Source: a virus (taxonomy: Duplodnaviria; Caudoviricetes). From it: a stretch of 50,203 nt of DNA. Positions 725 through 46,526 of the stretch are shown in pieces (the first letter of the stretch is position 1; each line of letters opens with the position of its first letter). The notes below the pieces were generated by a model, which saw only the letters and a program-made list of their open reading frames with translations, made no database searches and was not told where the DNA came from. The position numbers and the translations under genes are program-made. Location: IMG/VR virus record IMGVR_UViG_3300046170_000009, positions 1 to 50,203 of that record. One strand, written 5' to 3'.

Positions 725-725
725 T

Positions 726-4228: not shown

Positions 4229-4229
4229 T

Positions 4230-4774: not shown

Positions 4775-4782
4775 GAGAAAGT

Positions 4783-4989: not shown

Positions 4990-5001
4990 GAGATTTTTAT
5001 T

Positions 5002-5645: not shown

Positions 5646-5648
5646 ATC

Positions 5649-7304
5649 ATGGGCGAATTTGTGGAGTATCACAAGCCTTGTCCAAGTTGTGGAGGCAGTG
5701 ATCCTGTCTCCATAAACTCAGATGGTTCTGCAAAATGTTTTAGTTGTGGAACCTTTTTTAAAGATTACGAATCTGCGATGGGAGGAAACGTGGCAGACTT
5801 TAATAGCTTTAAAAGATCAAACGATAATACTTCATTCACCAACAGCGTGTATCACGCACTCACCGATAGATCTATTTCTCTTGAGACTGCAAAGAAGTTT
5901 GGTGTTCGTTCAGTCAAAGATGAGAAAGGTAATATTATTCAGCATCACTATCCGGTATACATAAACAATGAAGAAGTCGCTACAAAAGTTCGCAATCCTA
6001 ATAAAGCATTTACTTGGTCAGGCTCACCTAAAGGAACTGGGCTTTTTGGTCAGCAAGTGGCACAGTCGGGCGGCAAATACATTACGATCACTGAAGGTGA
6101 ATGTGATGCTATGGCGGCATACGAACTGCTTGGTAGTAAGTGGCCCGTCGTATCTGTTAAGAATGGAGCACAAGGCGCGGCAAAGGACGTTCAAGAAAAT
6201 CTTGAGTTCCTTGAATCGTTTGATACGGTGGTCATTTCATTCGACAACGACAAGCCGGGACGAGAAGCCGCAAAGAAAGTGGCGCGTATTATCAAGCCCG
6301 GAAAAGCTAAGATACTCACACTACCTACTGAGTTCAAAGACCCTAACGAAATGCTCAAGTTGGGTCATCACAAGGCTTACGTTACTGCATGGTGGGCTTC
6401 AAAACTTTACACGCCGTCTGGGATTCTAAACGTCAGTGAAGAGCGTGAGAACTACAAGAAGCGTGAGCGTAAAGAGTCTATCCCCTATCCTTGGAGCGGT
6501 CTTAATACAAAGCTTGATGGATTGAGGCAAGGAGAATTAATCACACTGACAGGCGGTACAGGCTTAGGTAAGTCTAGCGTTACTCGTGAGCTTGAACACT
6601 GGCTTATCACCAACACCAACGACAAGGTAGGTGTCATAGCTCTTGAAGAAGATTGGCGTCGAACTGTAGATGGTATTCTTTCTATTGAAGCTAATGCCAA
6701 ACTACATATTGATAGTGTTCGTACTGAGTTCACTGAAGAAGAAATAGATAATTTCTTTAATGTTCTGTACGACGGTCAAAATAAGAACCGTGTATTTGTT
6801 CATGCTCACCTTGGAATGAATGATGTCGATAGTGTATTTTCTAAACTACGCTTTATGGCAATGGGGCTTGAATGTAAGTGGATAGTATTTGATCACTTGC
6901 ATATGTTATTGTCGATGACAACAGACGGTGATGAACGTCGCAATATAGATTCTATAATGCACAACTTCAGAACACTTGTTGAAGAGACAGGCGTAGGTTT
7001 AATTCTTGTGTCACACCTTAGAAGAGTTGATGGTAATCGCGGTCATGAAAATGGTATTGAAACAGGACTCAATCATCTACGCGGCTCACAAAGTATTGCT
7101 CAGTTATCTGATTGTGTTATATCTTTAGAGCGTAACCAACAATCAGAAGATCCTATTGAGGCCAGTACAACAAAGGTAAGGGTCTTGAAGTCTAGGTACA
7201 CAGGAGATGTCGGCTTGGCTACCCATTTGTTTTATGACAAAGACAGTGGTAGACTCAGCGAGATCGCTATGGAAATAGAAGAACAGGATGAGCTTGAGTT
7301 ATGA
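5649..7304 (+). CDS. T7 gp4-like DNA primase/helicase
   Basis: Zn finger CPSC..CFSC, TOPRIM EGECDA and FDND, Walker A GGTGLGKS, VFDHLH, LRGSQSIAQLSD. Confidence 0.95.
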   Translation: MGEFVEYHKPCPSCGGSDPVSINSDGSAKCFSCGTFFKDYESAMGGNVADFNSFKRSNDNTSFTNSVYHALTDRSISLETAKKFGVRSVKDEKGNIIQHHYPVYINNEEVATKVRNPNKAFTWSGSPKGTGLFGQQVAQSGGKYITITEGECDAMAAYELLGSKWPVVSVKNGAQGAAKDVQENLEFLESFDTVVISFDNDKPGREAAKKVARIIKPGKAKILTLPTEFKDPNEMLKLGHHKAYVTAWWASKLYTPSGILNVSEERENYKKRERKESIPYPWSGLNTKLDGLRQGELITLTGGTGLGKSSVTRELEHWLITNTNDKVGVIALEEDWRRTVDGILSIEANAKLHIDSVRTEFTEEEIDNFFNVLYDGQNKNRVFVHAHLGMNDVDSVFSKLRFMAMGLECKWIVFDHLHMLLSMTTDGDERRNIDSIMHNFRTLVEETGVGLILVSHLRRVDGNRGHENGIETGLNHLRGSQSIAQLSDCVISLERNQQSEDPIEASTTKVRVLKSRYTGDVGLATHLFYDKDSGRLSEIAMEIEEQDELEL

Positions 7305-9055
7305 AGAGCATAGTATTTGATATTGAGGCAGACAGTTTAGAGCCTACAAAGATTTGGTGTATTGCCGCAGTCGATCCTGACTCTGGTGAAACCAAAACCT
7401 TTGGGCCTACTGAGATTGTTAATGGCCTTGCGTTTCTTACGACTGCTGAGAAGCTGATAGGCCATAACATTATTGGCTATGATCTTCCTGCCATCAAGAA
7501 AATACACAACGTAGATCTAACAGAAGGGCGAGCAATTGTTGATACCCTTGTCTTGTCCCGTTTGTTTAATCCTACAAGAGAGGGTGGTCATAGCCTAGAG
7601 TCTTGGGGTTATCGCATTGGCCTACAGAAAATAGATCATACAGAGTTTGGAGAATACTCTCCAGAAATGTTGAACTATTGTAGGAATGATGCAGTTCTCA
7701 ACGCTAAGATGTTTAACAATCTTAAAACAGAGTCTCGTGGCTTTAGTCGGCAGTCTGTTGTTCTTGAACATGAGGCACTAAAGATTATTGCAGATCAAAG
7801 AGAACGTGGCTTTCTACTTGATGTCAGGTCTGCAACTTTACTTGAGGCTGAATTGACTGACCGCCTAAAAGAAGTAGAGCGTGAGGTTCAAAAATCTTTT
7901 AGGCCCAAGCAACTAAAGACTATCTTGTTGCCGCACTTCACCAAGACAGGTGCGCTTTCTAAGATGGGGCAGATAGAAGGCTCGCCAAAGAAAAGCAGGC
8001 TAACGCAAGAAGAGTATGAAGACATAGCCACTAAGCGTAAAGCTATTCGCATTGAAGAAGTACCCTTCAACTTGGGGTCACGAAAACAAATAGGCGAGTA
8101 TCTTATCGACTTTGGTTGGAAGCCAAAAAGATTTACGCCTACAGGTCAGCCTATTGTAGATGAGTCAACACTCAGCAAGATTAAAAATATTCCTGAAGCT
8201 ACACTGATTGCTGAGTATCTTCTACTTCAGAAACGAATAGCACAGGTTAAATCTTGGTTGAAGGCAACGCATGAAGATGATCGTGTGAGAGGCTTTGTAA
8301 ATCCTAATGGTACTATCACAGGACGTATGACACATAACAGCCCTAACATGGCACAGGTTCCAAATCTTTCTGCCCCTTACGGTAAAGAATGTAGATCCTG
8401 TTGGACAGTACCAGAAGGCTATAAGCTAGTAGGTATTGATGCCAGCGGTCTAGAGTTACGAATGCTTGCACACTATATGAAGGATGAGGACTTCAAAAAT
8501 GAAATACTCCACGGAGACATACACTCAGCTAACCAAAAGCTTGCAGGACTTGAATCAAGAAATCAGGCGAAAACATTTATCTATGCACTCTTGTACGGAG
8601 CAGGAGATGAGAAACTTGGTAGTGTGGTCGGAGGAAATAAGCGTGATGGTGCGAAACTTAGAAAGCGTTTCTTCGATAATCTCCCTGCATTTAAACATCT
8701 TAAAGACAGGGTTGGACGAGCGGCTTCAAAAGGTTTCCTCAAAGGACTAGATGGGCGTAAGTTATATGTTCGTTCTGAACACGCCGCACTGAACACACTG
8801 CTTCAAAGCGCAGGAGCTATCGTCATGAAGCAGGCGATGGTAAATCTTAATCAGCTAATCAGGCTCAATACATTAGACGCACACTTTGTCTGCAACGTAC
8901 ACGACGAATGGCAGTTAGAAGTAAAAGAATCTGTGGCTGATTCAACAGGACAACTGGGGGTTGATGCAATAAAGCAAGCGGGTGTAGGACTAGAATTATT
9001 TTGTCCTCTTGATGGTGAATACAAGCTAGGAGATAACTGGAGTGAAACACACTGA
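7301..9055 (+). CDS. polA: family A DNA polymerase (T7 gp5-like, Tyr762 type)
   Basis: Exo DIEAD, motif A DASGLELR, motif B RNQAKTFIYALLYG, motif C VHDE. Confidence 0.95.
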   Translation: MKSIVFDIEADSLEPTKIWCIAAVDPDSGETKTFGPTEIVNGLAFLTTAEKLIGHNIIGYDLPAIKKIHNVDLTEGRAIVDTLVLSRLFNPTREGGHSLESWGYRIGLQKIDHTEFGEYSPEMLNYCRNDAVLNAKMFNNLKTESRGFSRQSVVLEHEALKIIADQRERGFLLDVRSATLLEAELTDRLKEVEREVQKSFRPKQLKTILLPHFTKTGALSKMGQIEGSPKKSRLTQEEYEDIATKRKAIRIEEVPFNLGSRKQIGEYLIDFGWKPKRFTPTGQPIVDESTLSKIKNIPEATLIAEYLLLQKRIAQVKSWLKATHEDDRVRGFVNPNGTITGRMTHNSPNMAQVPNLSAPYGKECRSCWTVPEGYKLVGIDASGLELRMLAHYMKDEDFKNEILHGDIHSANQKLAGLESRNQAKTFIYALLYGAGDEKLGSVVGGNKRDGAKLRKRFFDNLPAFKHLKDRVGRAASKGFLKGLDGRKLYVRSEHAALNTLLQSAGAIVMKQAMVNLNQLIRLNTLDAHFVCNVHDEWQLEVKESVADSTGQLGVDAIKQAGVGLELFCPLDGEYKLGDNWSETH

Positions 9056-9374
9056 TATGAAACAGCTTAATATTTTTGATGATCTAAGCCCACACAAACT
9101 GCATAGAAAAAATGATCCAAACACAAGTAAGGAAGCCGCTTATTCAACACCCTTAGCAAAAACTAGGGCGTTTGTTCTAGACCTAATTGAAGAGGCAGGA
9201 GCGCGGGGGATTACAATAAGAGATATGACAAAAAGGTTTCCTGAGATATCTCCTAGCTCTATAACATCTAGACCTAATGAGTTGGCAAAACTAGGACTTA
9301 TCTTTTATGCTGGGGATAAACGAGATGGGTCGAGAGTTATAAGACACCATAAATACAAGGAAAATAAAAAATGA
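9042..9374 (+). CDS. putative winged-HTH DNA-binding protein
   Basis: HRKNDPNTSKEAA..GITIRDM..SITSRPNELAKLGLI pattern seen in phage wHTH proteins. Confidence 0.6.
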   Translation: MKHTDMKQLNIFDDLSPHKLHRKNDPNTSKEAAYSTPLAKTRAFVLDLIEEAGARGITIRDMTKRFPEISPSSITSRPNELAKLGLIFYAGDKRDGSRVIRHHKYKENKK

Positions 9375-9655
9375 AAGTACAGCACGAACCAAATAGGATC
9401 GGTGACTTAGCAGAACACTATGCCGTTACATGGTTATGGGACAATGGTTATCATGTATTTAAAAACTGTGGATGCACAGGGCCAGTGGATATTGTTGCTC
9501 TAAACCCAGAGGGTAAGGTCACTTTGATAGATGTTAAGTCTTATAAAGACGGCAGGCTCTCTGCAAAAACTCCACTTCAAAAAGAACTTGGTGTGCAGTA
9601 CCTACACTACAATTCAAAGACACGTAAGTGTCGATTCGTAAGGCATAGAAAATGA
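9371..9655 (+). CDS. small PD-(D/E)XK nuclease / Holliday junction resolvase-like protein
   Basis: GDLAE..GPVDIVA..LIDVKS. Confidence 0.7.
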   Translation: MKVQHEPNRIGDLAEHYAVTWLWDNGYHVFKNCGCTGPVDIVALNPEGKVTLIDVKSYKDGRLSAKTPLQKELGVQYLHYNSKTRKCRFVRHRK

Positions 9656-10524
9656 AACTTGACACATTAGTTGACGATATATATGGACAGCTTGGTAAGT
9701 TATTTGAAGGCAAAGCATTTAATTTATCAGATGAAGATCTGGACATGACCGCATCACGTATCAAAGATTCCCTTCTGGCTTGGGCTAGACCATCAGAAAG
9801 AAACTCAGAGTTCTCTCTGCGTATGTCTAATGTTGGTCGGCCTGCCAGACAGCTTTGGTATGAGCAGAATATACCCACAGAAAGCACAACGCCTCATCCA
9901 TCTTTACAGATAAAGTTTCTTTATGGTCACATCCTAGAAGAAATTCTTTTGATGCTTGTTCGTGCCGCAGGACACAATGTCACTGACGAGCAAAAAGAAA
10001 TTACAGTCAAAGGTATTAAAGGCCACATTGATTGTAAGATTGATGGTGAAGTGGTTGATGTAAAGACTGCATCTAAGTTTGCATTCAATAAATTCCGTGA
10101 GGGTCGCCTAGCTGAAGACGATCCTTTCGGATACATGTCACAGCTTGCAGGCTATGAGGAGGCTGAGAAGTCTTCTGAGGGAGGCTTCCTTGTTATTAAC
10201 AAAGAGAGTGGGGAGCTATGTCTTTATCGCCCAGAAGAGCTTGACAAGCCTGCTATTGACCAACAAATACAAACTGTAAAGAAAGCCTTGAAGTTGGCTA
10301 CGCCTCCACCACGGTGCTATGAGTCTGTGCCAGAAGGCAAGAAAGGTAATATGAAAATACATCGCAACTGTAATTACTGTGCTTATAAGTTTGAATGCTA
10401 CAAAGATGCTAACAATGGTACAGGGCTTAGAGTTTTTAAATATTCTAATGGGCCGACGTACCTGACCCACGTAGAAGTTGCGCCAAGAGTTGAGGAGGTG
10501 TTTAATGAATCGACGCCTTTCTAA
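9652..10524 (+). CDS. PD-(D/E)XK (Cas4-like) exonuclease
   Basis: LRMSNVGRPARQLWY, GHIDCKIDGEVVDVKTAS, QLAGY, C-terminal CNYCAYKFEC. Confidence 0.8.
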   Translation: MKLDTLVDDIYGQLGKLFEGKAFNLSDEDLDMTASRIKDSLLAWARPSERNSEFSLRMSNVGRPARQLWYEQNIPTESTTPHPSLQIKFLYGHILEEILLMLVRAAGHNVTDEQKEITVKGIKGHIDCKIDGEVVDVKTASKFAFNKFREGRLAEDDPFGYMSQLAGYEEAEKSSEGGFLVINKESGELCLYRPEELDKPAIDQQIQTVKKALKLATPPPRCYESVPEGKKGNMKIHRNCNYCAYKFECYKDANNGTGLRVFKYSNGPTYLTHVEVAPRVEEVFNESTPF

Positions 10525-10774
10525 AAAAATAAATCAAAAAACAATTGACATCTTTCTTGAATGGCTCAGTAGTGTTATATCGGAAGAGCAAGCCTCTCAG
10601 ATTGTACGCAAGAACTACAAAGAATATGTTCCTGAGAATGCTTATTACTGGAGCAAACACACCATTTTAAATTCTGTGTTTTCGCCACGTTGGGTTAAGC
10701 GTAAATTAAAAAGAAAGCTTAGACAAAACCCACAGAAAAAGCTAGACAGTTACTGCATGAATGACTTAAAATGA
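10505..10774 (+). CDS. hypothetical basic protein
   Basis: GAGGAGG RBS before ATG 10505. Confidence 0.65.
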   Translation: MNRRLSKKINQKTIDIFLEWLSSVISEEQASQIVRKNYKEYVPENAYYWSKHTILNSVFSPRWVKRKLKRKLRQNPQKKLDSYCMNDLK

Positions 10775-10911
10775 AAGTACTAACAATAGAGGCGTTAATT
10801 TTTTTCTGCGCCAAGCAGTTAGCAGACGAAGAAACAATAGATGATGATCTCTTGTTTGAGTTGTATACTGTATTACATTTACATTTTGAAGGGATACCAA
10901 CATTACATTGA
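10771..10911 (+). CDS. hypothetical protein (46 aa, not in ORF track)
   Basis: ATGA overlap upstream and TTGA overlap downstream fill the gap exactly. Confidence 0.6.
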   Translation: MKVLTIEALIFFCAKQLADEETIDDDLLFELYTVLHLHFEGIPTLH

Positions 10912-11387
10912 AACCAAAAATAAAAAAAGGGTATAGGAAGGCGCGTGTCAAACGGCCTGTCGATAAAGCACCTGTTCGTGGATATGATTCTAATTGGGAG
11001 TATGAGCTACACTCAGGCATCCTCAATGATTGGAAGATTCATTCTGAAAAGGCAGAATATATTGTCGAGCATACCTATCATCCAGACTTCATCCGCATAG
11101 TAGATGGCAAGAAAATATATCTTGAAGCTAAAGGTCGATTCTGGGATCATCAAGAATATAATAAGTATGTGTGGATCGCTAAAGCTTTACCAGAAGATAT
11201 AGAGCTAGTGTTTTTATTTGCAGATCCCAATGCTCCTATGCCACAAGCAAAGCGCCGTAAGGATGGCACAAGACGTAACCATTCTGAGTGGGCTTCTTCT
11301 AAAGGTTTTAGATGGTTTTCTGAAGATAGTATTCCAGAAAGCTGGATAGATGTTTCAAAGAGGGAGATCATGGGTGATGATGAATGA
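10908..11387 (+). CDS. T7 endonuclease I-like nuclease
   Basis: YDSNWE..YHPDF..YLEAKGRF. Confidence 0.85.
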   Translation: MKPKIKKGYRKARVKRPVDKAPVRGYDSNWEYELHSGILNDWKIHSEKAEYIVEHTYHPDFIRIVDGKKIYLEAKGRFWDHQEYNKYVWIAKALPEDIELVFLFADPNAPMPQAKRRKDGTRRNHSEWASSKGFRWFSEDSIPESWIDVSKREIMGDDE

Positions 11388-11535
11388 TCGAAAGCAAGAG
11401 CGCCTAGAAAAATTTAGTCGTCACAAAAGAAAAAAATACGAAGAAAAAGTAGACGGCAAATATAAACCAATAAAGAAAAGAAATAAATATAAACTAAATG
11501 TAAATGACTTGAATGATGTGCAAGAGTTAGAATGA
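11377..11535 (+). CDS. hypothetical basic protein
   Basis: GGGAG RBS; K/R-rich ORF coupled to the next gene. Confidence 0.55.
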   Translation: MMNDRKQERLEKFSRHKRKKYEEKVDGKYKPIKKRNKYKLNVNDLNDVQELE

Positions 11536-11711
11536 AATCGCCTTGCACAAAAGTATGTACACTTAGGGATGGGGTGTGCATTGGATGTGGAAGGAGCCTA
11601 AACGAAATAACAAACTGGTCAAAATATACCACCAAAGAAAGGAGTAATATCATTGGACGCCTATCAAGAATACATACACAAAAGTCGTTACGCACGATAC
11701 CTTCCAAGTGA
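11532..11711 (+). CDS. DUF1289-like Cys-rich protein (59 aa, not in ORF track)
   Basis: MKSPCTKVCTL..VCIGCGRSLNEITNW signature; ATGA-coupled start. Confidence 0.8.
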   Translation: MKSPCTKVCTLRDGVCIGCGRSLNEITNWSKYTTKERSNIIGRLSRIHTQKSLRTIPSK

Positions 11712-13512
11712 GGAGCGTAGAGAAACATGGAAAGAAACAATAACGCGCTACATTAAATATTGGGGAGATAAACTCAATGATGATGAGCGTGTAGAAATAT
11801 TTAAAGCTATCCACGATCTTGAGGTCATGCCGTCTATGAGGGCTTTGATGACCGCTGGTGAAGCATTAGATCGTGATAACATGGCAGGATTTAATTGTAG
11901 TTATCTTGCTATCGACAGCCCGCGTTGCTTTGATGAAATGATGTATGTTCTTATGTGCGGTACAGGTGTTGGTTATAGCGTAGAAGAACAATACGTTTCT
12001 AAACTTCCAGAGATCGCAGAGGATTTTCATGCAACAGATACAGTCATACACGTACCGGATTCAAAAGTTGGATGGGCGAAATCGTTTAGGGAATTGGTAT
12101 CGTTGTTATATTCAGGTCAAATACCAGAATGGGACACAACTAGAGTTCGACCTGCGGGTTCCTCGCTCAAAACTTTTGGAGGTAGAGCAAGCGGCCCAGA
12201 ACCTCTTATCGACCTCTTCAAATTTACAGTTAGATTATTTACGGGAGCGGCTGGACGAAAGCTTACGTCCCTTGAATGCCACGATCTTTGCTGTAAGATT
12301 GCTCAAATCGTCGTCGTCGGAGGAGTCAGACGATCAGCTTTAATTAGTTTATCTGATTTATCAGACGATGCACTACGACAAGCAAAGCATGGAGCATGGT
12401 ATAATACTGAGGCACAGCGTGGCCTTGCAAATAACAGTGCTTGTTATAATAGCAAGCCTTCTTTTGAATTATTTTTAGATGAATGGAGAAGTCTTTATGA
12501 ATCAAAAAGTGGAGAACGAGGAATCTTCAGTAGAGCCGCAAGTCAAAAACAAGCTTCAAGAAATGGTAGAAGAGATAGTGAAAGAGATTTCGGTACGAAT
12601 CCCTGTTCCGAAATTATATTACGAAAATCCCAAACTTGCAACCTTTCAGAAGTTGTCGTCAGACCGGAAGATACGGCTAGATCTCTTGGGAGAAAAGTAC
12701 GTCTTGCAACTATCTTGGGTACTCTCCAAGCTACCCTCACGGACTTCCGATACCTCAGAGGAATCTGGAAAGCCAACACCCAAGAAGAGGCGCTCTTAGG
12801 AGTAAGCCTTACAGGTATTCTTGACAATCCTTTGCTTACTCTTGAGAACAAAGATCTTGATGGACTGCTTGAAAACTTACGTGACATAGCTATTGAAACA
12901 AATAAAGAGTGGGCAGAACGCTTAGGTATTTCTCAGAGTACAGCCATTACCTGTGTTAAGCCCAGCGGCACAGTCTCTCAGTTAGTTGATTCTGCATCAG
13001 GCATCCACGGACGCTATGCACCATATTATATTCGTCGTGTTAGAGCAGACATGCGTGACCCCCTGTGTGCTGTCTTAGAAGACGCTGGAGTGCCTTGTGA
13101 GAAGGATAGTTTTTCACCCAGTACTAAGGTATTCTCCTTCCCTAAGAAGGCTCCAGAGAGCGCTGTGTTTGCCTCAGAGCAGACAGGGATGGAACAGTTA
13201 GAGTTGTGGGCTAAGTACCAGAAGCATTGGTGTGAACACAAGCCTAGCATCACTGTATATTATCGTGACTCAGAGTTTTTGGAGATCGGTAATTGGGTAT
13301 ACAACAACTTTGATGATATATCAGGTATATCTTTTTTACCGTATGACGAACACAGCTATGCTCAAGCACCATATGAGCAAATAACAGAAGAGCAATACAA
13401 TGAAATGGTTGAAGGATTTCCAACAGAGTTTGATTGGAATCTTAATGAGGCTGATGATTTTACTGAAGGAGCCCAAACACTAGCCTGTGTTGGTGGGGCT
13501 TGCGAACTCTGA
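11653..13512 (+). CDS. nrdJ: class II adenosylcobalamin-dependent ribonucleotide reductase
   Basis: HKSRYAR, MPSMRAL, FNCSY, GGVRRSALI, TNPCSEI, TCVKPSGTVS, C-terminal CVGGACEL; TTG start with AAGGAG; no beta subunit gene. Confidence 0.92.
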   Translation: MDAYQEYIHKSRYARYLPSEERRETWKETITRYIKYWGDKLNDDERVEIFKAIHDLEVMPSMRALMTAGEALDRDNMAGFNCSYLAIDSPRCFDEMMYVLMCGTGVGYSVEEQYVSKLPEIAEDFHATDTVIHVPDSKVGWAKSFRELVSLLYSGQIPEWDTTRVRPAGSSLKTFGGRASGPEPLIDLFKFTVRLFTGAAGRKLTSLECHDLCCKIAQIVVVGGVRRSALISLSDLSDDALRQAKHGAWYNTEAQRGLANNSACYNSKPSFELFLDEWRSLYESKSGERGIFSRAASQKQASRNGRRDSERDFGTNPCSEIILRKSQTCNLSEVVVRPEDTARSLGRKVRLATILGTLQATLTDFRYLRGIWKANTQEEALLGVSLTGILDNPLLTLENKDLDGLLENLRDIAIETNKEWAERLGISQSTAITCVKPSGTVSQLVDSASGIHGRYAPYYIRRVRADMRDPLCAVLEDAGVPCEKDSFSPSTKVFSFPKKAPESAVFASEQTGMEQLELWAKYQKHWCEHKPSITVYYRDSEFLEIGNWVYNNFDDISGISFLPYDEHSYAQAPYEQITEEQYNEMVEGFPTEFDWNLNEADDFTEGAQTLACVGGACEL

Positions 13513-39851: not shown

Positions 39852-39862
39852 ACCTATCTCCA

Positions 39863-39893
39863 GAAAAGAAAAGGGGGAGTATTTCATCCCCCT
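39863..39893 (-). terminator. intrinsic terminator after the major capsid gene
   Basis: AGGGGGA-TGAAATAC-TCCCCCT followed by TTTCTTTTC on the - strand. Confidence 0.8.
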
Positions 39894-39900
39894 ATTGTTT

Positions 39901-40890
39901 TTAGTCGATACCGTAGAAAGCCGAAACGAGGGCTTCTGGACGGAGTACTTTAGCACCATATACATGGAGGCCACGTACAATATCACCAAAACTTGATGGA
40001 TCACGAATCACTTCTGTATTCACGATGGTCTGTGCAGTACAGGTAGATGACATGTGACCAGCAATACACTTACCAGCCGCGTTAGTAGTCGCCGCAATGT
40101 TGTTGGTCTTGTACATATCAAAACCACGCAACTTACCAGAGCTTACCAAACCATTACGGATGGAGCCTTGGCCTGCATTGAAATCAACGCTCAAGAGCTT
40201 AGAGCTACTTTGTACCAGTTGCTCGTAGAACTCAGGGTTAGCAAGGAACCAGCGACCTTCTTCTGGAATGTTCTGCTCATCAAGCAGACGCGCCATGTGT
40301 GAAAGAACGTCAATAGGATCGTGCTCGCCAGAAGCGTAACCGATGTCAAGGTTACCAGTACCGTCAAAAGTACCAGCCGCCAAGTCAGTAGCGCTATCAG
40401 AACCAAGAATATGGTTCGGAGAAGCCGCAGGAACGCCAGCAAACATAGCGGCAATTACACCTTCATCAAAAGCGTCACGCAGTGCGTAAGCGGCTGAAGA
40501 TGATGCAACTTCCTTAAAGTTTACGTGAGACATAGAAGTTTCGATGTCGTCAACGATGAACTTAAATGCGTTTGCCGTATCTACAACAAGGCTGACTTCT
40601 TGATCGGTCAACTTAGTTTGAGTTACGTCTGCACCACGCTCGTACTGATAGACGGTGATTACAGGCTCTTTGATAATACGTACTGTATCGCCAAAGGCAG
40701 TAATTTCGCCAGCATAGTCGGTGTTAGTGATAGCTTCCGCTACTGAAGACTTCCGAAAGAAGTTAAGTACCTTCTTGGAATAGACAGCAGGAAGGAAGAA
40801 CGAATTGGTTTGACCCGCAACAGAGTTTGCAAAGTTTGCATCTGTATCTGTTGACGGCTCAAAGTACTGATCTGATTGGTTATAAGCCAT
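39901..40890 (-). CDS. major capsid protein
   Basis: FLPAVYSKKVL..TNTDYAGEI..GDTVRI..FGDIVRGLHVYGAKVLRPE; follows scaffold, precedes terminator. Confidence 0.88.
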   Translation of the reverse strand: MAYNQSDQYFEPSTDTDANFANSVAGQTNSFFLPAVYSKKVLNFFRKSSVAEAITNTDYAGEITAFGDTVRIIKEPVITVYQYERGADVTQTKLTDQEVSLVVDTANAFKFIVDDIETSMSHVNFKEVASSSAAYALRDAFDEGVIAAMFAGVPAASPNHILGSDSATDLAAGTFDGTGNLDIGYASGEHDPIDVLSHMARLLDEQNIPEEGRWFLANPEFYEQLVQSSSKLLSVDFNAGQGSIRNGLVSSGKLRGFDMYKTNNIAATTNAAGKCIAGHMSSTCTAQTIVNTEVIRDPSSFGDIVRGLHVYGAKVLRPEALVSAFYGID

Positions 40891-40917
40891 TGTGAAAATC
40901 TCCTAAAAAGACAAATA

Positions 40918-41733
40918 TTATCTTGCTACCCTTCCTTCTGCAATGGCACGATCTATTTCCTGTTCGTAACGATCATACTCATCAATAGATAGGGCGGCAA
41001 TTTCCCGTTGTGTCCAAATTTTAGCTTCGCGTGGTTCAACGCCGGTAGTCTTTGTTGATACCATGTCAGCCGCATTAGACTTTGAAAGTTGTGACGGGCG
41101 AGAAGATTTCTTAATCTTAATATTATTTTCCATCTTATAAAGATCAATTGCACGACTTGCTAAAGATACATTATCTGGGTTTTTATAAATCCAACGCTGA
41201 ATTTCTTCAGGCTGAACTTTAGCCCATTCATGAAAGTTGTCATCACCCCTGATATCTTCAAAGTCAGGGTGTCTATCTCTGAGAGCTAGTTCAGCATCAC
41301 GCTTAGACATTTCTGCTTCACGCATTTCGATTACTGATAGCTTTTGTTGAAGAGCGTTCATCTGCTCTTCGCTTCTCATATGAGCAACTGTTTCGACAGT
41401 ATCATATAGATCTGGATACTCTGATTTAAAACGCTCAAGATCTTCAGCACTTTTTGGCGGTTGATACTGCGGTTGTGCAGATCGTGCCATAGCCTCTAGT
41501 TCTTGTTCGCGTTGCTTAAACTCAGAGATCTTAGTATCATAATGTTTTTTTAGATCGTCATACCTTTTCTTATAATTGGTACGAGGACGTTGTTCTTGTT
41601 GAGGGGTTCCACTTTGGGAAGTAGCCTCATCTTCCTCAAAAAATAATGAATCTGCACTCTTAGTAGCTTTATCGTCTTCTTCATGCCAAGACTTTCTAGC
41701 ATTGTACGGATTCGCTTGCTCTTCTTCGCTCAT
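40918..41733 (-). CDS. capsid scaffolding protein
   Basis: AAGGAG RBS before ATG 41733; YKKRYDDL coiled coil, HPDF, C-terminal IDRAIAEGRV. Confidence 0.82.
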   Translation of the reverse strand: MSEEEQANPYNARKSWHEEDDKATKSADSLFFEEDEATSQSGTPQQEQRPRTNYKKRYDDLKKHYDTKISEFKQREQELEAMARSAQPQYQPPKSAEDLERFKSEYPDLYDTVETVAHMRSEEQMNALQQKLSVIEMREAEMSKRDAELALRDRHPDFEDIRGDDNFHEWAKVQPEEIQRWIYKNPDNVSLASRAIDLYKMENNIKIKKSSRPSQLSKSNAADMVSTKTTGVEPREAKIWTQREIAALSIDEYDRYEQEIDRAIAEGRVAR

Positions 41734-41748
41734 GTCACTTCTCCTTTC

Positions 41749-41868
41749 TGGGGCTTGTTGTCTCTTCAAGGTGGCTGTGTTATTGCGCTCTAACACAGGG
41801 TCTTGATACTACAAGGTGGCCTCAAGGTTATATAATGATAAGGGGCTAGTGTTCTAGGTAGCCTTATC
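41749..41868 (-). promoter_or_regulatory. structured 5' leader of the scaffold gene (candidate cis-regulatory RNA)
   Basis: Three GC(U/C)AC-CU(A/U)G..C(U/A)AG-(C/A)CC hairpin units plus an 8-bp hairpin directly upstream of the RBS. Confidence 0.6.
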
Positions 41869-42514
41869 GTTTCATTAGGCTAGGCATTCGGCTTGAATAG
41901 AGCATTTGATTCTCTACTTCTTCCTGTTGATTCTCGTTATCTTGATTGCTATAAAGATCATCGACAGGCATTCCACCTTCTGCTTTAGCCATAAGACCGC
42001 CATCATAAGCACGTTCAGCATCGTCCATCATTGTTTGGAGATTGTCTGCACCTATTTGGTCAGTCGCTTTTTCGGTGATAACAAACTCACCGTCCGATAG
42101 CCTTGCGGGTATCGAATCTGAAATTCCAGTGCCGGGGCCATCAACTTCCCCAGCGCCAGAAAATTCTGTTGAATTAAGAATAATTTTATCTAAGATCCCT
42201 TCTAGTTTTGGATCGTCATCTAGAACCTTAAATAAATATTCTTGCTCTTCGGGTTCTAATACTTCTTCTGCTACATAGTCTACAAACTCTTCTTCCATTT
42301 CATCATCTGGAAGCATATCTTCAGCCTGTTGCATTTCTTCTTCTGGGCTGATATTGTCGTATGTATCGACAGGAGGTTCCTCTTCAGCCATCATCATTTC
42401 TGGAGGAACCATCATAGATTCGCCACCTTCAGCAAAAGCACCACGACCCATCAATACATCTGCTTGTGTTACTTCACCGTCTTTGTTTAAGTCTGGAAAT
42501 GCTTCAGCCATCAT
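41864..42514 (-). CDS. acidic head-module protein with GPGTGxSDSIPARLSDGEFV domain and EF-hand-like loop
   Basis: DLNKDGEVTQADV, FAEGG, GPGTGISDSIPARLSDGEFVI motifs. Confidence 0.75.
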   Translation of the reverse strand: MMAEAFPDLNKDGEVTQADVLMGRGAFAEGGESMMVPPEMMMAEEEPPVDTYDNISPEEEMQQAEDMLPDDEMEEEFVDYVAEEVLEPEEQEYLFKVLDDDPKLEGILDKIILNSTEFSGAGEVDGPGTGISDSIPARLSDGEFVITEKATDQIGADNLQTMMDDAERAYDGGLMAKAEGGMPVDDLYSNQDNENQQEEVENQMLYSSRMPSLMKR

Positions 42515-42737
42515 TTTGTTCCTTTTGTCTTTGATTCACTTGATCCTTTAAAGTAAGGAGGTTAGCCAGAGAACTCGCTTTCCCCTGCTTGCGGAACATC
42601 TCCTGTTCCAATGTTGCCGTCGCCAGTGCCTGTAACTCCAGCATCCGTTGGCTCTGGAGGTACTCCTTCAGGGGTTCCCACATTTCCGGGTTGTTGACTA
42701 AGGGGATCAGCTTGTTCGCCAGTTGCTTGTCCAACAT
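42504..42737 (-). CDS. small helical head-module protein overlapping the portal 3' end
   Basis: LIPLVNN..W..L..FRKQGK..L pattern of small post-portal genes. Confidence 0.65.
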   Translation of the reverse strand: MLDKQLANKLIPLVNNPEMWEPLKEYLQSQRMLELQALATATLEQEMFRKQGKASSLANLLTLKDQVNQRQKEQNDG

Positions 42738-44731
42738 TATTTTGCATTCCTATAATTTGTGCGGCTATTGCCGCTTCTTCGGGATCATTTAGTATTTCAT
42801 CAGGATCAAGATCTAAACTATATGCTAGTTCGCTAATAAGCTTTGACATTTTAACAAACGGAGCAATAGCAGGATTTTGAGCAGTCTGAAGAAACATTGT
42901 CAATCGTTGACTTCTTACTTCCTTTTGCATAAGGCTGTTAGTACCCATAGCCTTAATTTCTAAATCACCTTTAGTTTTTAATTCACCTTCAAAGAATTGC
43001 ATATTCCATTGGAAGTATGCTTTACCCAAGGGCTTTAGCAAAAAATCGTCTAGGTTTTTTACAACTGTTTTAATATTTAGTGATGCGGCTCCAAGCAACA
43101 TTGACATACCAGATGCTGTACGAGTCATGCTTTGTACGCCTGTCTGACCATGTGAATAACTAGGAATGCCTGTTTGTTCGTCTGCAAGCTGTCGGAACTT
43201 ATCGAACATCATTAAATTTTCTTGAGATGTGTTCGGAAACTTTAGACCATGAATTGCTTGGCCTTGCATTCCTGACTGACGCCTGAAGACTTTGCCCGGA
43301 TAAATTTCCATGCTTTGTCCACCAACAAGCATAGTCTCATCTACGTCAAAAATTACTGAGCCACTTAACGCCAGATTATCAATAGCCATTCTTGCATGAC
43401 CATTCATAATCTGTTGACTATCATTCATGTTTTCAGCAACGCCTACACCAAAGAAACTGTATGGGTTTCTCTCGTATGGGAATGCGTTGTAGGGAATACG
43501 ATGTGGCGTAAAGGGATTAACAACAGCCCTGAGTACAAGGCCATTACAAATCCAAGCATTAATCTGTATTTCATCAAGAATGTCTACCTCTTCTGGAAGT
43601 TCAATACCAACATCTTTAGCATACTCTGCATCCATTAAGCCCCAGTACTCAAGCACTTCAAAACGACTAGCACCCATATCTGCCATGCGTTGATCGTCTT
43701 TTAATTCGTACTCGTAGTCTTCTTCTGTGTAGTTGGGGCCAAGCATCATACAATCACGAATAGCATCTTCGTTAAAGTATGGCATTTTTCGTAAGGCTCT
43801 CAGTTGAGATTTGTTTAGCTTGTGTCGGTGTACTATATACTCACACTCTTCAATAGATGTTGCATTAGGATCAGGAAAGAAATCCCAGACACTTACAAAT
43901 TCAATGCGCGGTACACGAATAGAAACAGGTGTATACTCACGACCTTCCTTCATTATCTTCCCACGTATGTAAAGTCTTATTAAAATTAAACGGCCCTTTT
44001 ACAATACCTGTACCAAAAAGAGCAGATTCAAAAATGGCGTTACGCATTTCAGTAGAACCACTAGACTCATCAATTTGATCGTGAATGAGTTTTTCCATAT
44101 TCCTTGCGGCTTCTTTAGCCGGTGAAATTTCAGGAATATTTGGAATGGGGCTTGGGCCTTCAACAAATGTAACTTGATCACTTTTTTCAAAGTCTTCAAA
44201 TATACCTTCACCACTAGTCAACCTAGCTCCGGGTTTTAGTACACGACCATCTCCAGCATAACCAACACCACCTTCTGGACGTTCTTCTTGCATAGGCGGT
44301 TGGGGGGTTGCGTTTGCTTCGATACCGGGAGCGGCTTGATCATCAAGGTGCATATACTCACTAACGCCTTCGGGCAGTGGAGTATGCGCTACACCAATTG
44401 GAAACTTACCTGTACCAAAGATTACGTCTATTAGCTGTCCATAGGCGGCTAGTACTTTAGTCTTTGTAACTTTAATAAATACACGAGACTTTTCAGATTC
44501 TCTAAACTTTACGTTTTTAGGATATAGTCCACGAAAATTATGATACGCAGTCATCCAACGATTTTCGTCAGAATCTTTTGCCATTTTAGAATCTGTAAAT
44601 CTTGCTTCAACAAGACCAGCAAGGTTTGATTTAATCTGAGCATCTGCATTAATAGATAAACCATCTTCACCCTCTACTGGTTCAAAGTAAAGATTATTAG
44701 CACTATCAATTATTGTATTGTTTTCTGCCAT
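42562..44731 (-). CDS. portal protein, split by a probable 1-nt frameshift near 43949
   Basis: ORFs 43937-44731 and 42562-43953 join if one base is removed; TKTKVLAAYGQ, FGTGIVKGP, VSVWDFFPDP, TRTASGMSML; follows TerL. Confidence 0.85.
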
Positions 44732-44733: not shown

Positions 44734-44844
44734 TTATCCTATTGGTGTTAGGCTAACGAGAGAATAGATAAGTGTAAAACCTACAACAATACCTAGACTA
44801 TAAATTCCATAAGTGTTTAGTGGTCGCCAAACTTTGTGCTTCAT
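44734..44844 (-). CDS. small single-TM protein (36 aa, not in ORF track)
   Basis: TAATG coupling to the TerL stop; hydrophobic IYSLGIVVGFTLIYSLVSL. Confidence 0.55.
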   Translation of the reverse strand: MKHKVWRPLNTYGIYSLGIVVGFTLIYSLVSLTPIG

Positions 44845-46526
44845 TAATATCCAAACGTCCCATCTGCTGGTTGATAAATAGTCTCACGGTGTAATCGACG
44901 CATACGACTAAACGTATCGTCTATGCGTGGCCTAGACATAATTAAATACCTCAACGCATCATACGCATGGTCTGGTGCGTGGGTATTAACATCTTCAGGA
45001 TTGTTTTTATCCAGAGGAATACTTTGTAGTTCGCGTATCAGGTTAGGACAAGTATTAAATATTTGTAATTTGGGCCTTCCGCTTTGCTGAACTTTTAAGT
45101 ATTCGTGGATTTGAATCTTTCCTGCAACTCTGTTTTTATCTGCTCGTCGTAGCTTATGTCCAGCTTTGACAAGCGTTTCTCCAACTGTTGGGCCTGTCTG
45201 CCCTGTGCGATTCCAACACGCTGTATCTAATACGCCCGGAACGCTCATTGGATCATTTAGTTCCATTTCTGCTATCAAGTGAGCTAAGTCTGTAGCTAAT
45301 AGTCCTTTACGATAAAGTTCTCTATATATTATTAACGTATTATCGTCCCGATCTATTGCACCCCAAACACAAGCTGATTCTGAAGCGTATCCATAGTCAA
45401 TGCCTTTTATACGATCCCAGTTTATAGGAATTTCAAAAGGATCAATAATATGAACATCTCTGTCGAACTCTGTGAAGGCCGCACCTTCTGCAACCTCCCA
45501 ATCACCTTCTAGTAGTTGTCGTCGTTGCGTAGGTGGCAACGCCTTCAACATTTGTTCGTAGCGTCCGTCATGAGCAAGGTATGGATTATCTTCTAGCCTT
45601 GCTGGTATAAACTTACGGCTTAGGCCGTCTTCACCCTTAAATGATTCGTTAGGCGGTGAAGGAGTAATATATCTTTTCTTTACCCAATGCGCTCCAACAC
45701 CACCGGGGTTAGCGGTACACCGCATATAAGGTATAATCTCTGGATCTGTTGTACGCAGTCGTGAAGCCAAGTAGTTCCAAGAAAACTCTGTAGCTTGGTG
45801 CGTAATCTCATCAAATCCAATCCAACTATACGCTTGTCCTTGGTAGCGATAAACATCTGCATCTCTCTCCAAGAATCCAAATTCTATTTTAGCTCCAGAC
45901 GGAAAGTTCCAGAGCTTCTCTACTTCTTTGTACTTACAACCGGGAAAGGCTTTCGGGTAGAGTTCACGAGATTTATCTATGAGTTCACGTAACTCTGGCA
46001 TAGAACGCCGCAGGATTAATGCCCTATGCGCGGCCCGATGAGCATAACGAAGAGGGTCAACCAGCATCGCGTAGCTCTTGCCTCCACCAGCCGCACCACC
46101 ATACAAAACATCAGTCTCAGAAGCGGCGAGAAAGTCAGTTTGTGGCCCAGTGTTAGGCTTAAAGATGACATTCTCTTCTGCGACAGTCCTTAACGCCTTG
46201 GGCAAATCATCCGTGGATGTTGTTGTAATTTTGCCTTCAGACTTTGCCTCAGTTCCTTCTAATTTATTTAAAGTACTCTTAGAAGTGTCAAGCGACCTTT
46301 TATAGTTTTCTAGCTTGGTGCGTACCTGCGCTAATCGTTTTTCTTTCTTTCGTACAGTTTTCCTTGCGTCGATCTTGGCCTTGGTTTCGGAGTGGTAGTT
46401 GTAGCCTCGACCTGACGAACCTTTGGGTCTGCCAGTTTTCTTACGAGGTGTTCCATCCTTTTTAAGTATAAAATCCCCGTTGTCGTCTCGCATATACGCA
46501 TCAGGGTTTTCCTCCCAATCACTCAT
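44844..46526 (-). CDS. terL: terminase large subunit with N-terminal basic extension
   Basis: Walker A YGGAAGGGKS, Walker B IGFDE, TANPGG, nuclease GIDYG and DHAYDALRY. Confidence 0.93.
   Translation of the reverse strand: MSDWEENPDAYMRDDNGDFILKKDGTPRKKTGRPKGSSGRGYNYHSETKAKIDARKTVRKKEKRLAQVRTKLENYKRSLDTSKSTLNKLEGTEAKSEGKITTTSTDDLPKALRTVAEENVIFKPNTGPQTDFLAASETDVLYGGAAGGGKSYAMLVDPLRYAHRAAHRALILRRSMPELRELIDKSRELYPKAFPGCKYKEVEKLWNFPSGAKIEFGFLERDADVYRYQGQAYSWIGFDEITHQATEFSWNYLASRLRTTDPEIIPYMRCTANPGGVGAHWVKKRYITPSPPNESFKGEDGLSRKFIPARLEDNPYLAHDGRYEQMLKALPPTQRRQLLEGDWEVAEGAAFTEFDRDVHIIDPFEIPINWDRIKGIDYGYASESACVWGAIDRDDNTLIIYRELYRKGLLATDLAHLIAEMELNDPMSVPGVLDTACWNRTGQTGPTVGETLVKAGHKLRRADKNRVAGKIQIHEYLKVQQSGRPKLQIFNTCPNLIRELQSIPLDKNNPEDVNTHAPDHAYDALRYLIMSRPRIDDTFSRMRRLHRETIYQPADGTFGY

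Follow-up and report, generated by a model that had tools for sequence, protein, structure and literature searches.

A candidate regulatory RNA with repeated CYAC/MC internal loops at the ribosome-binding site of a scaffold-like gene in phages of Alphaproteobacteria

We found that a cis-acting structured RNA lies directly before a scaffold-like gene on the minus strand of a complete 50,203-nt marine phage genome (the window, the whole stretch of DNA that was analysed), and that it is very probably a regulatory switch for the capsid assembly genes. The element folds as RNA on one strand, persists through compensatory base changes in hundreds of related phages, is conserved in structure and position across distant phages, and is linked exclusively to one family of scaffold-like genes; we infer its binding partner and the direction of regulation, the partner from association only. 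In our preferred but still tentative reading, the element would act as an operator of translation, recognised by a dimeric protein that the structural module encodes, the simplest candidate being the scaffold itself. Capsid assembly needs a set ratio of scaffold to coat protein and, to our knowledge, how scaffold output is set in phages other than P22 is essentially unknown. The RNA at this ribosome-binding site is compact, strongly covarying and symmetric, with invariant loops, and its motif is also found in phages that have been cultured on tractable hosts (Sinorhizobium meliloti phage phiM6, Rhizobium phages, roseophage CRP-2), so that the question is directly testable.

The motif unit, G-CYAC-helix-loop-helix-MC-C, forms a hairpin that is interrupted by a 4x2 internal loop. 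The window holds four such sites, all of them at the scaffold locus, which is laid out as follows.

41837-41868, minus strand: Hairpin 1, motif copy 1, read from the sequence
41822-41836, minus strand: AU-rich single-stranded spacer, AUUAUAUAA, with CCUU at 41827-41824
41750-41821, minus strand: nested pseudo-symmetric domain, in which motif copies 2 and 3 face each other
41731-41746, minus strand: Shine-Dalgarno AAGGAG (41746-41741) and start codon ATG (41733-41731) of the scaffold-like gene
40921-41733, minus strand: scaffold-like gene (271 aa) preceded by the element; phrog_13678, function unknown
41600-41629, minus strand: motif copy 4, within the scaffold coding region, at about codons 36-45

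Hairpin 1, GAUAAGG-CUAC-CUAG(aaca)CUAG-CC-CCUUAUC (41868-41837), is built of an outer stem (GAUAAGG/CCUUAUC), the internal loop (CUAC/CC), an inner stem (CUAG/CUAG) and the loop AACA, and the UAA stop codon (41866-41864) of the upstream 216-aa ORF sits within it. Copy 2 reads GG-CCAC-CUUG...CAAG-AC-CC (41821-41798) and copy 3 reads G-CCAC-CUUG...CAAG-CC-CC (41775-41750), with AAGGAG and then ATG downstream; between the two is a central 8-bp hairpin, CUGUGUUA/UAACACAG (41798-41775, minus strand). By position, the nested domain runs GG(41821-20)-CCAC(41819-16)-CUUGU(41815-11)-agua-UCAAG(41806-02)-ACC in its 5' part, CUGUGUUA (41798-91), gagcgcaa and UAACACAG (41782-75) at its centre, and CCAC(41774-71)-CUUGA(41770-66)-agagaca-ACAAG(41758-54)-CC-CC(41751-50) in its 3' part, and its last C is 3 nt from the Shine-Dalgarno. 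Copy 4, UGAGG-CUAC-UUCC(caaagu)GGAA-CC-CCUCA, starts about 105 nt into the coding region. The letters and coordinates that the earlier note had assigned to its elements on the mRNA strand all proved correct, but the span in which it had enclosed them leaves copy 4 outside.

The leader is more strongly folded than expected, as a 156-nt segment reaches -35.5 kcal/mol, compared to -23.7 +/- 3.3 kcal/mol for shuffled sequences (z -3.55), and none of 200 shuffles was as good. A strict motif scan of both strands of the window returned five matches, four of them in 41597-41869 on the minus strand (shuffle mean 1.34). Likewise, a covariance model of the unit, run over the whole genome, gave E<0.01 at these four sites only, with a next best match at E=0.67; Hairpin 1 scored 43.6 bits, as a site of the kind used to build the model, and copy 4 scored 40.9 bits. 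The enriched signal is the whole motif and not the 8-mer CCACCTTG, which with one mismatch allowed is not enriched (28 observed, 29.9 expected).

Covariation supports the paired regions throughout the element. In 42 distinct homologous sequences of Hairpin 1, 98.7% of cells are paired and 10 of the 11 pairs have changed on both sides, a result that 0 of 500 shuffles reach. Double-sided changes are found in 7 of 8 pairs of the central hairpin (45 distinct leaders), and in 5 of 5 pairs of the inner helix of copy 4, which is 97.1% paired in 36 distinct sequences. The residues encoded across copy 4 vary (ATSEDGTP, ATRKTSTP, ATRSAAP) while the RNA pairing persists; the 'AT...TP' residues that are conserved at the scaffold N-terminus track the RNA motif, not the reverse, and the site clearly illustrates how an RNA structure can constrain coding sequence. 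The loop letters and the closing outer G-C pair are invariant, whereas stems and hairpin loops vary freely, which is the pattern that would be expected of a specific recognition surface. Thus, the pair counts in homologous leaders uphold the earlier note in its statement that the inner stem covaries while the C-rich internal loop is kept, and the comparison of related scaffold leaders that it had suggested reveals covariation in Hairpin 1, copy 4, the central hairpin and the HMO-2011 clade (see below).

The same alignments indicate what kind of molecule folds. Among non-Watson-Crick cells, G·U outnumbers A·C by 38 to 3, and therefore the folded molecule is minus-strand RNA, rather than DNA or RNA of the other strand. 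Strong motif instances in the loci are likewise concentrated on the mRNA strand (229, compared to 18 on the other). We considered that the repeats might instead be a DNA-level signal, such as a hairpin promoter or a single-stranded DNA site for replication or packaging, since inverted repeats could in principle extrude and, because all genes here are on one strand, strandedness alone does not exclude single-stranded DNA. The G·U excess, the confinement to the mRNA strand, the fixed place beside the ribosome-binding site and the single locus per genome all argue against such a signal, and chance repetition is ruled out, since the pairs covary over two clades and more than 100 distinct sequences; together, we regard these explanations as barely credible. 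With compensatory pairs, on one strand and in two clades, the element has the properties of a conserved structured cis-regulatory RNA.

Copies 2 and 3 most likely pair with each other and not locally. In this nested arrangement, one helix joins the 5' CUUG to the distal CAAG and another joins the proximal CAAG to the second CUUG, such that both copies and the 8-bp hairpin form a single long hairpin with pseudo-two-fold symmetry. These cross helices are 100% paired in the 45 distinct leaders, with 2 compensatory pairs, while the distal hairpin of the local alternative is broken in 5 of the 45 (10 unpaired cells). Moreover, the nested fold is the more stable in 45 of 45 leaders, with a mean of -19.3 kcal/mol compared to -7.9 kcal/mol for the local form. 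We therefore rejected a pair of local hairpins for these copies. An extended local stem in one relative (L061/L062), CUUGAA/UUCAAG, is compatible with the local form, and the two forms may be in equilibrium. The nested domain comprises about 20 bp of duplex with three internal loops (about 16 bp in the HMO-2011 form), and each strand of this symmetric site reads stem-CYAC-helix-MC-stem. The triple internal-loop hairpin of the earlier note thus stands as regards repeated internal-loop units, but two of its three units form one nested hairpin, and a fourth copy exists.

The element occupies the position expected of a translational operator, abutting the Shine-Dalgarno. Across 80 IMG/VR loci, three of them cut off at the 5' end, we classified copies 1, 2, 3 and 4 as present in 77, 76, 72 and 56, respectively, and among 78 scored loci, 77 have a spacing of 3-5 nt between CCCC and the GGAG-like core. 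The element is also directly before the Shine-Dalgarno in HTVC103P/104P, CRP-2, HMO-2011, RHph_N3_13 and phiM6, and gaps are longer (8-13 nt) in HTVC115P and HTVC033P. The CCUU at 41827-41824 can pair with the AAGG of the Shine-Dalgarno, and this helix, P0, is present in the predicted minimum-energy folds. However, although 89.4% of its cells are paired, 104 of 500 shuffles match that value, and P0 is absent as such in the HMO-2011 clade. Since shuffled sequences do as well, we dropped P0 as a conserved pairing; such pairing is possible but unsupported by covariation.

A second clade, that of SAR116 phage HMO-2011, carries the double motif before the homologous gene in 78 of 80 loci. The shared helix of this clade is paired in 216 of 225 cells over nine helix versions (e.g. 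UCACU/AGUGG and CUAAC/GUUAG), and its outer stem switches from GUUGG/CCAAC to ACUGG/CCAGU. The predicted minimum-energy fold of HMO-2011-type leaders pairs GGCUAC with GUGGCC, and we rejected it as the conserved structure because the 5 nt after CUAC covary with the 5 nt before CCCC. The clade, whose membership rests on this separate pair analysis, is an independent confirmation of the symmetric architecture. We recognised the symmetric form by eye in Rhizobium phage RHph_N3_13 and Sinorhizobium phage phiM6 (one sequence each), and simpler forms with one or two hairpins in pelagiphages HTVC103P, HTVC104P, HTVC115P and HTVC033P (the last assigned from the reading of one sequence) and in roseophage CRP-2. 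In five other complete or near-complete genomes, matches again cluster at the scaffold locus, with one weaker extra match in HTVC104P. The unit model scores poorly on four of these phages (7.5-11.3 bits; E 0.2 for phiM6, 1.1 for HMO-2011, 1.4 for HTVC033P and 2.2 for RHph_N3_13), because the inner 'hairpin' there is a whole second unit.

The leader of Slicky01, a Pseudoalteromonas phage whose scaffold belongs to the family, is short and has no motif, and the unit model found nothing significant in three distant phages of Gammaproteobacteria, namely Slicky01, Aeromonas phage MQM1 and Vibrio phage CHOED. By eye, MQM1 and CHOED show G-AYAC-CGUAC(loop)GUACG-MC-C immediately before the ribosome-binding site, which we do not claim as the motif since it is without model support. 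All four metagenome-assembled genome (MAG) contigs that we found carry 3-4 motif copies and have discordant labels (Acidiferrobacteraceae, Sphingobacteriales, Bacteroidia, Maricaulis); they are probably binned phage contigs, and therefore we claim no host from their labels.

The gene behind the element is scaffold-like, in keeping with the name that the earlier note had given it. Its place in the gene order (portal pieces, the 216-aa ORF, this gene, the major head protein) fits a scaffold, and AlphaFold predicts an elongated, helical protein whose N-terminus is disordered (mean pLDDT 68). Fold matches in BFVD include, from rank 8 (E 4.7e-5), several entries named scaffolding protein. Against this, the TM-scores of these matches are low (0.14-0.21), phrog_13678 is unannotated, and neither a Pfam family nor a recognisable RNA-binding domain was found in the protein. 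Since the motif accompanies this gene family even in very distant phages, with its loops kept beside the ribosome-binding site, a protein operator is the most economical reading. The scaffold proteins of these phages share only 33-40% identity, and their N-terminal third is unalignable between clades (tblastn matches to HMO-2011 begin at residue 53). The motif could also serve as a marker for annotating scaffold gene starts in uncultured viral contigs.

We examined the surroundings of the leader for transcription signals. A scan for -35/-10 elements of sigma-70 type found no promoter-like site on the minus strand in 41730-41900, and no terminator-like site was found in 41730-41870; the only nearby terminator-like hairpin lies directly after the head gene (39893-39872). 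Contigs assembled from the RNA libraries of three studies span the head and scaffold genes together with the leader and Hairpin 1, and reach the upstream ORF at its 3' end (X1 and X3, 39858-42022; X5, 40519-42141; X6, 40276-41986), although such contigs cannot show ends, strand or level and the libraries may contain DNA. The contigs leave 42067-43275 uncovered; we count neither this gap nor the points at which contigs stop as evidence for a promoter or for processing.

A leader with several stem-loops, whose internal loops are conserved and which sit midway in a long late operon, might also suggest a transcriptional element, either put-like antitermination or an attenuator, which would govern late read-through of the terminator after the head gene. 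That terminator-like hairpin, and a U-run that follows Hairpin 1 in some relatives (e.g. the L064 group), are consistent with this idea. However, what is constant across clades is the short distance to the Shine-Dalgarno (3-8 nt) and not the position relative to a promoter or terminator, the leader in the window has no terminator-like site, and the copy in the coding region would be unfolded by translating ribosomes. We thus consider a transcriptional role highly improbable. The HK022 put RNAs, paired stem-loops with conserved irregularities, act in cis just after early promoters and on RNA polymerase, whereas the present element belongs to a late operon, is linked to a ribosome-binding site and shares no sequence or Rfam similarity with them.

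A second alternative, which we think unlikely, is that the element serves RNase processing or mRNA stability, with RNase III cutting the symmetric duplex or RNase E cutting the AU-rich spacer. Cleavage would detach an abundant scaffold-capsid mRNA from the message upstream of it; Hairpin 1 would then protect a 3' end and the nested domain a 5' end, and the cut might also free the ribosome-binding site. RNase III is a dimer, and its phage T7 sites carry internal loops; a pseudo-two-fold symmetric site of 16-20 bp with internal loops recalls such substrates. The spacer between Hairpin 1 and the nested domain is a conserved AU-rich single strand, and the terminator-like hairpin at 39893-39872 would define a short scaffold-capsid message. 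The T7 sites (e.g. R1.1) and the lambda N-leader site are intergenic hairpins of long phage transcripts, with an internal loop between two helices and dimer-like symmetry, and they can influence downstream translation. In contrast, the helices here are shorter, and single units (11 bp in Hairpin 1, 9-10 bp in copy 4) are short for RNase III. Moreover, RNase III normally needs no invariant loop, and here the loop is kept over very distant phages with scaffolds of such low identity. Finally, one unit is inside the coding region, where cleavage would destroy the message.

All motif-confirmed phages infect Alphaproteobacteria (SAR11, SAR116, Roseobacter RCA, Rhizobium and Sinorhizobium), and therefore a conserved host factor could equally be the partner. 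The CYAC/MC fold might be read by an alphaproteobacterial protein (e.g. a ribosomal protein or translation factor) or by a metabolite, or the RNA might act on its own, as a ribosome standby site or enhancer that sets high scaffold output without phage-encoded feedback. The loops are invariant even though the N-terminal third of the scaffold is unalignable between clades, and the repetition of a small conserved domain recalls tandem riboswitches, which have such an architecture. On the other hand, there is one locus per genome, when a general enhancer would be expected at other late genes too, e.g. the head gene, and no Rfam family, riboswitch or ribosomal-protein leader matches the element. 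We regard a host factor, a small ligand or an RNA-only device as decidedly unlikely. HTVC103P-type and HMO-2011-type phages, according to the portion of a preprint available to us, have a common structural and packaging module and different replication modules, and rank among the most abundant groups in marine viromes (bioRxiv 10.1101/2019.12.14.876532). Since the structural module is common and the replication module is not, a phage-encoded partner should be encoded in the structural module.

The preferred reading, a translational operator bound by the scaffold, would work as follows. The recognition unit on the late mRNA would be a helix with the 4x2 internal loop (5'-CYAC-3' opposite 5'-MC-3') and the invariant outer closing G-C. 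Immediately ahead of the ribosome-binding site, two units face each other on either side of a common helix and make up a pseudo-two-fold symmetric site; two further single units lie nearby, one at the upstream stop codon and one within the scaffold gene, about 105 nt from its start. A dimer of some protein from the same structural module, most simply free scaffold, would bind the symmetric site and may spread cooperatively to the flanking single sites. Binding would stabilise a fold that abuts, and maybe partly pairs with, the Shine-Dalgarno, so that 30S binding is blocked and scaffold synthesis is tuned to the amount of unassembled scaffold. The protein-binding operator of the earlier note, sensing scaffold or coat protein, thus gains a repeated conserved RNA at the ribosome-binding site of a scaffold-like gene, and the sensing itself stays conjectural. 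In a more specific form, which we advance with less confidence, the CYAC/MC loop pair would be an undescribed palindromic RNA operator through which scaffold dimers count their own unassembled pool. If so, scaffold autoregulation would have its first defined RNA target, one retained over a very long time in rhizobiophages and in podoviruses that are among the most abundant in the ocean (HMO-2011-type, HTVC103P-type), and the copies at the stop codon and in the coding region would make it a multi-site cooperative ribonucleoprotein switch, not a single operator.

Scaffold autoregulation in P22 has been known since the 1970s-80s without a mapped operator, and we know of no RNA operator for it. 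The likeness to P22 lies in the same kind of gene at the same place in the module (portal, scaffold, P22-type coat), and in P22 control acts post-transcriptionally and is believed to respond to free scaffold. The coat protein of HMO-2011 is annotated as Pfam PF11651 (P22 coat). The N-terminus of the P22 scaffolding protein has been implicated in translational autoregulation, as stated in the part of the source that we consulted (bioRxiv 10.1101/2022.12.13.520362). We rejected P22 gene 8 as a homologous RNA target: it begins 13 nt after the portal gene, without such a leader, and the unit model found nothing better than E 0.77 in P22 bases 1-12000. Similarly, we found no sequence homology between the P22 scaffold and the present scaffold proteins. 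Thus, the P22 precedent invoked by the earlier note is good as an analogy, but it is not transferable by homology.

We also compared the element with known RNA families and with published screens. As the earlier note had proposed, Rfam 15 was searched (permissive E<=10, over 41000-42600 and 41580-41900), and no family came at or near its gathering score; the chance matches (snoRNA, sRNA and similar) scored 10-17 bits against gathering scores of 38-100, and none covers Hairpins 1-3. A full-text literature search found no description of this scaffold leader, although the supplementary models of one study (PMC10690425) may include it. That study, in the portion available to us, screened IMG/VR intergenic regions by covariation and reports 8,495 models (DNAVirus_X), with 879 candidates within 25 bp upstream of genes; 'scaffold' has 0 occurrences in the main text as accessed, and the leader may be among these 8,495 anonymous models. 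The screen used the same data source and kind of evidence as our analysis and was limited to intergenic sequence; therefore, it would not have revealed the copy in the coding region or the symmetric architecture.

Among characterised systems, the element most invites comparison with phage translational operators. The sites of T4 gp32, gp43 and RegA and the coat-protein hairpins of MS2 and PP7 are structured sites at or beside a ribosome-binding site, in which sequence-specific unpaired nucleotides are held in a covarying helix and the bound protein blocks initiation. Those operators are single sites recognised through a hairpin loop or bulge, whereas here there are four units, two of them in pseudo-two-fold symmetry, one spanning a stop codon and one in a coding region, and the recognition feature would be the 4x2 internal loop. 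The CYAC/MC loop may also resemble the C-loop, which is known from rRNA and from the thrS operator and is an asymmetric internal loop between Watson-Crick helices, its longer strand being C-rich; we offer this likeness as a lead.

In the window, which is rated a complete record (50,203 nt; IMG/VR; CheckV 100%), the minus strand carries all genes of the portal-scaffold-head neighborhood.

Features of the neighborhood, in the order of the mRNA
44844-46526, minus strand: large terminase
43937-44731, minus strand: portal, ORF 1 of 2 (PHROG profile 5-148, N-terminal part)
42562-43953, minus strand: portal, ORF 2 of 2 (same PHROG, profile 153-547, C-terminal part)
41864-42514, minus strand: 216-aa ORF
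41837-41868, minus strand: hairpin 1 (copy 1)
41750-41821, minus strand: copies 2 and 3, flanking a central 8-bp hairpin
ATG 41733 to 40921, minus strand: 271-aa ORF, scaffold-like (phrog_13678, unannotated)
41629-41600, minus strand: copy 4, UGAGG-CUAC-UUCC(caaagu)GGAA-CC-CCUCA, ~105 nt into the scaffold coding region
39901-40890, minus strand: major head protein

The 271-aa protein matched no Pfam family. AlphaFold (22-row alignment, mean pLDDT 68) models residues 1-53 as disordered, with long helices after them and a small helical region at the C-terminus. A BFVD fold search returned entries named scaffolding protein from rank 8 on (E 4.7e-5 and weaker), with the low TM-scores expected for such an elongated helical shape. 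Given the predicted shape and these matches, "scaffold gene" is a reasonable, if provisional, name for this ORF. We also noted that the portal ORFs overlap at 43937-43953 (minus strand). Compared with the window, a contig of RNA-library run X3 lacks 1 nt at 43945, so the portal split may be a frameshift error or strain variant of the window record rather than a true two-gene arrangement.

The repeated unit is a hairpin, G-CYAC-helix-loop-helix-MC-C, with a 4x2 internal loop. All of the hairpin elements listed in the earlier note, which described three internal-loop hairpins upstream of the scaffold gene, were found in place on the mRNA strand, and copy 4 is an addition to them. A strict scan of the window (G-CYAC-4bp-loop-4bp-NCCC) gave 5 sites, 4 of them within 41597-41869 (minus strand), compared to a shuffle mean of 1.34, and none of 200 shuffles equaled the leader fold (z -3.55). 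With E<0.01 as the cutoff, a unit covariance model built from 60 sequences (8 pairs) hit the entire window at only 4 sites, all at the scaffold locus; as these resemble the training instances, the informative part is the absence of other sites. Good matches in 5 more complete or near-complete genomes likewise cluster at the scaffold locus, with the exception of one inside the HTVC104P gp65 coding region (MN698243.1 32391-32443, minus strand; locus L084), far from that locus. This match (22.7 bits, 14.4 bits on rescoring) has a 20-nt insertion in the hairpin and may be due to chance. No promoter-like or terminator-like sites were found in the window's leader, and a transcriptional role for the element is improbable. 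Separately, a possible pairing of CCUU (41827-41824) with the Shine-Dalgarno AAGG appeared in predicted folds, yet was no better than in shuffles.

We examined conservation in 80 loci (61-100% amino-acid identity) kept from at least 594 IMG/VR relatives of the scaffold-like protein, and found the leader in every locus not cut off. Copies 1, 2, 3 and 4 were present in 77, 76, 72 and 56 of the 80 loci, respectively, with the 5' region missing from 3 loci. The leader spans 115-145 nt from stop to ATG with differences that are not multiples of three, and is thus non-coding. Among 41 loci with scaffold coding sequences <75% identical to the window's, identity to the window was 73% in the leader, 67% in the scaffold coding sequence and 63% at the end of the upstream gene. 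Covariation was present in the homologous loci, in hairpin 1, copy 4 and the nested domain of copies 2 and 3. In hairpin 1 (42 distinct sequences), 98.7% of cells were paired and 10 of 11 pairs had both-sided changes; these values were reached by 0 of 500 shuffles, and shifting the partners abolished the signal. Across the 60-instance alignment, no variation occurs in the G preceding CYAC, in CYAC's own A and C, or in two C's that follow the helix. Non-Watson-Crick cells were G·U (38) rather than A·C (3), and strong motif instances lay on the gene strand (229) rather than the other strand (18). Thus, the folded molecule is the mRNA, and a DNA-level signal or chance is a very improbable explanation of the element.

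The copy inside the coding region behaves similarly. Its inner helix was 97.1% paired with both-sided changes in 5 of 5 pairs (36 distinct sequences), in versions UUCC/GGAA, UAGC/GCUA, UCGA/UCGA, CCGA/UCGG, UCGC/GCGA and CCGC/GCGG. Neither the sequence nor the length of the residue stretch encoded there, between a conserved "AT" and "TP/AP", is constant, yet pairing is kept; the RNA and not the protein is therefore the constrained object. "AT" and "TP/AP" (scaffold residues ~36-45) fall on the invariant letters of copy 4, GCUAC and CCCC, in an N-terminal region that is otherwise hypervariable, indel-rich and disordered; protein conservation here looks like one imposed by the RNA motif.

Copies 2 and 3 have the inner stem CUUG/CAAG in common, and thus two folds are possible: two local hairpins either side of the 8-bp hairpin, or a nested fold that pairs the first CUUG with the last CAAG and the first CAAG with the second CUUG. 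The nested helices were 100% paired in 45 distinct leaders. In one sub-clade (5 sequences), CAAG becomes UGAG and the second CUUG becomes CUCA, such that the cross helix gains two compensatory pairs and the local distal hairpin loses two. The nested fold was more stable in 45 of 45 leaders (mean -19.3 vs -7.9 kcal/mol for the local fold), close to the unconstrained minimum (mean -19.6 kcal/mol). Thus, the letters, unit and coordinates of the three hairpins stand, but copies 2 and 3 favor one nested hairpin, in which each strand reads stem-CCAC-CUUG...CAAG-MC-stem and the two internal loops are opposed with pseudo-two-fold symmetry. An equilibrium between the forms may still exist, as the local stem is extended in the L061/L062 relative. 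In most of the window's clade, the central-hairpin loop (41783-41790) retains RCGCR (AGCGCA or ACGCGA) as its core over a covarying stem, although two sub-clades (the L052 and L060 groups) lack it.

The closest cultured relatives are pelagiphages HTVC103P/104P/115P (scaffold protein 38-40% identical), followed by HTVC033P, SAR116 phage HMO-2011 (36%), and RCA roseophages and rhizobiophages (33%). All of these records place the scaffold-like gene in a portal-scaffold-coat neighborhood.

Units in cultured relatives
HTVC103P/104P: three units, one of them in the coding region
HTVC115P: one clear unit adjoining the ribosome-binding site and an irregular unit (CA 3' loop) at the upstream stop
HTVC033P: one unit, CA 3' loop
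CRP-2: GG-CUAC-CCAGC(uacg)GCUGG-CC-CC, GGAG 7 nt downstream; 20.7 bits
HMO-2011: [GUUGG]-CUAC-[UCACU]-CC-[CCAUAC(ccgaca)GUGUGG]-CUAC-[GGUGG]-CC-[CCAAC] then AAGGAG; symmetric, one shared helix

HMO-2011-type relatives were encoded by 588 of 600 candidate stretches, and 78 of 80 loci fetched carry the double motif, the remaining two being cut off. In the shared helix (45 distinct sequences), 216 of 225 cells were paired (160 Watson-Crick, 56 G·U; exceptions 5 A·C and 4 U·U), in nine versions including UCACU/AGUGG, UCAUC/GGUGG and CUAAC/GUUAG, and GUUGG/CCAAC in the outer stem gives way to ACUGG/CCAGU. At the level of sequence, this clade is an independent confirmation of the symmetric element; its central loop is conserved but different (CCGACA). 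Rhizobium phage RHph_N3_13 and Sinorhizobium phage phiM6, single sequences, show the nested layout by eye and have no significant unit-model score. In gammaproteobacterial Aeromonas phage MQM1 (L091 ~745-770) and Vibrio phage CHOED (L093 ~970-995), a similar hairpin, G-AYAC-CGUAC(loop)GUACG-MC-C, lies directly 5' of the homologous gene's ribosome-binding site; it receives no score from the unit model and could be related to the motif but diverged.

In 77 of 78 scored loci, 3-5 nt separate the end of the element from the GGAG core downstream. This fixed place, together with invariant loops and freely varying helices and hairpin loops, points to translation initiation as the step controlled and to a specific partner acting in trans. 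The pseudo-two-fold symmetry suggests that the partner would be a dimer. HTVC103P-type and HMO-2011-type phages reportedly have only the structural and packaging module in common (bioRxiv 10.1101/2019.12.14.876532), so a phage-encoded partner should come from that module, and the scaffold-like gene is the one present with the element in every case. The scaffold-like protein is thus a candidate partner by association, and would control its own synthesis; we favor such a translational operator tentatively. The P22 scaffold, the precedent invoked earlier, is reported to be under autogenous control (bioRxiv 10.1101/2022.12.13.520362), which matches this idea, but no comparable leader exists in P22. 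A role in RNase III/E processing and mRNA stability is unlikely; doubtful as well is a site for a host factor or ligand, or an RNA-only device, and no Rfam 15 family matches the leader region.

The leader is not described in the full-text literature searched. Candidate structured RNAs, 8,495 of them and all anonymous, came out of a 2023 screen that covered intergenic regions in IMG/VR (PMC10690425), and this abundant, strongly covarying leader may be one of them. New as far as checked are the symmetric architecture, the copy inside the scaffold coding region, and the scaffold-gene link across SAR11, SAR116, Roseobacter and rhizobial phages.

Four MAG contigs of 5-48 kb (L175-L178) hold the phage locus with 3-4 motif copies each. 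Their inconsistent labels (Acidiferrobacteraceae, Sphingobacteriales, Bacteroidia, Maricaulis) are more in keeping with phage contigs caught up in binning than with prophages. Contigs from RNA libraries of three studies span the head gene, the scaffold gene and the whole leader, into the upstream ORF end, which speaks to presence in such libraries only and not to ends, strand or level. In the X1 and X3 contigs, 39852 and 39858 are separated by 249 extra letters, just past the head-gene terminator, and the upstream ORF has a 1-nt deletion offset by a 1-nt insertion at 41932/41934; these differences are strain variation. That strong intrinsic-terminator-like hairpin, AGGGGGAUGAAAUACUCCCCCU followed by a U-run (39872-39893, minus strand), lies directly 3' of the major head gene, as stem-loops likewise do in P22, HK97 and lambda (annotation note of the P22 record).
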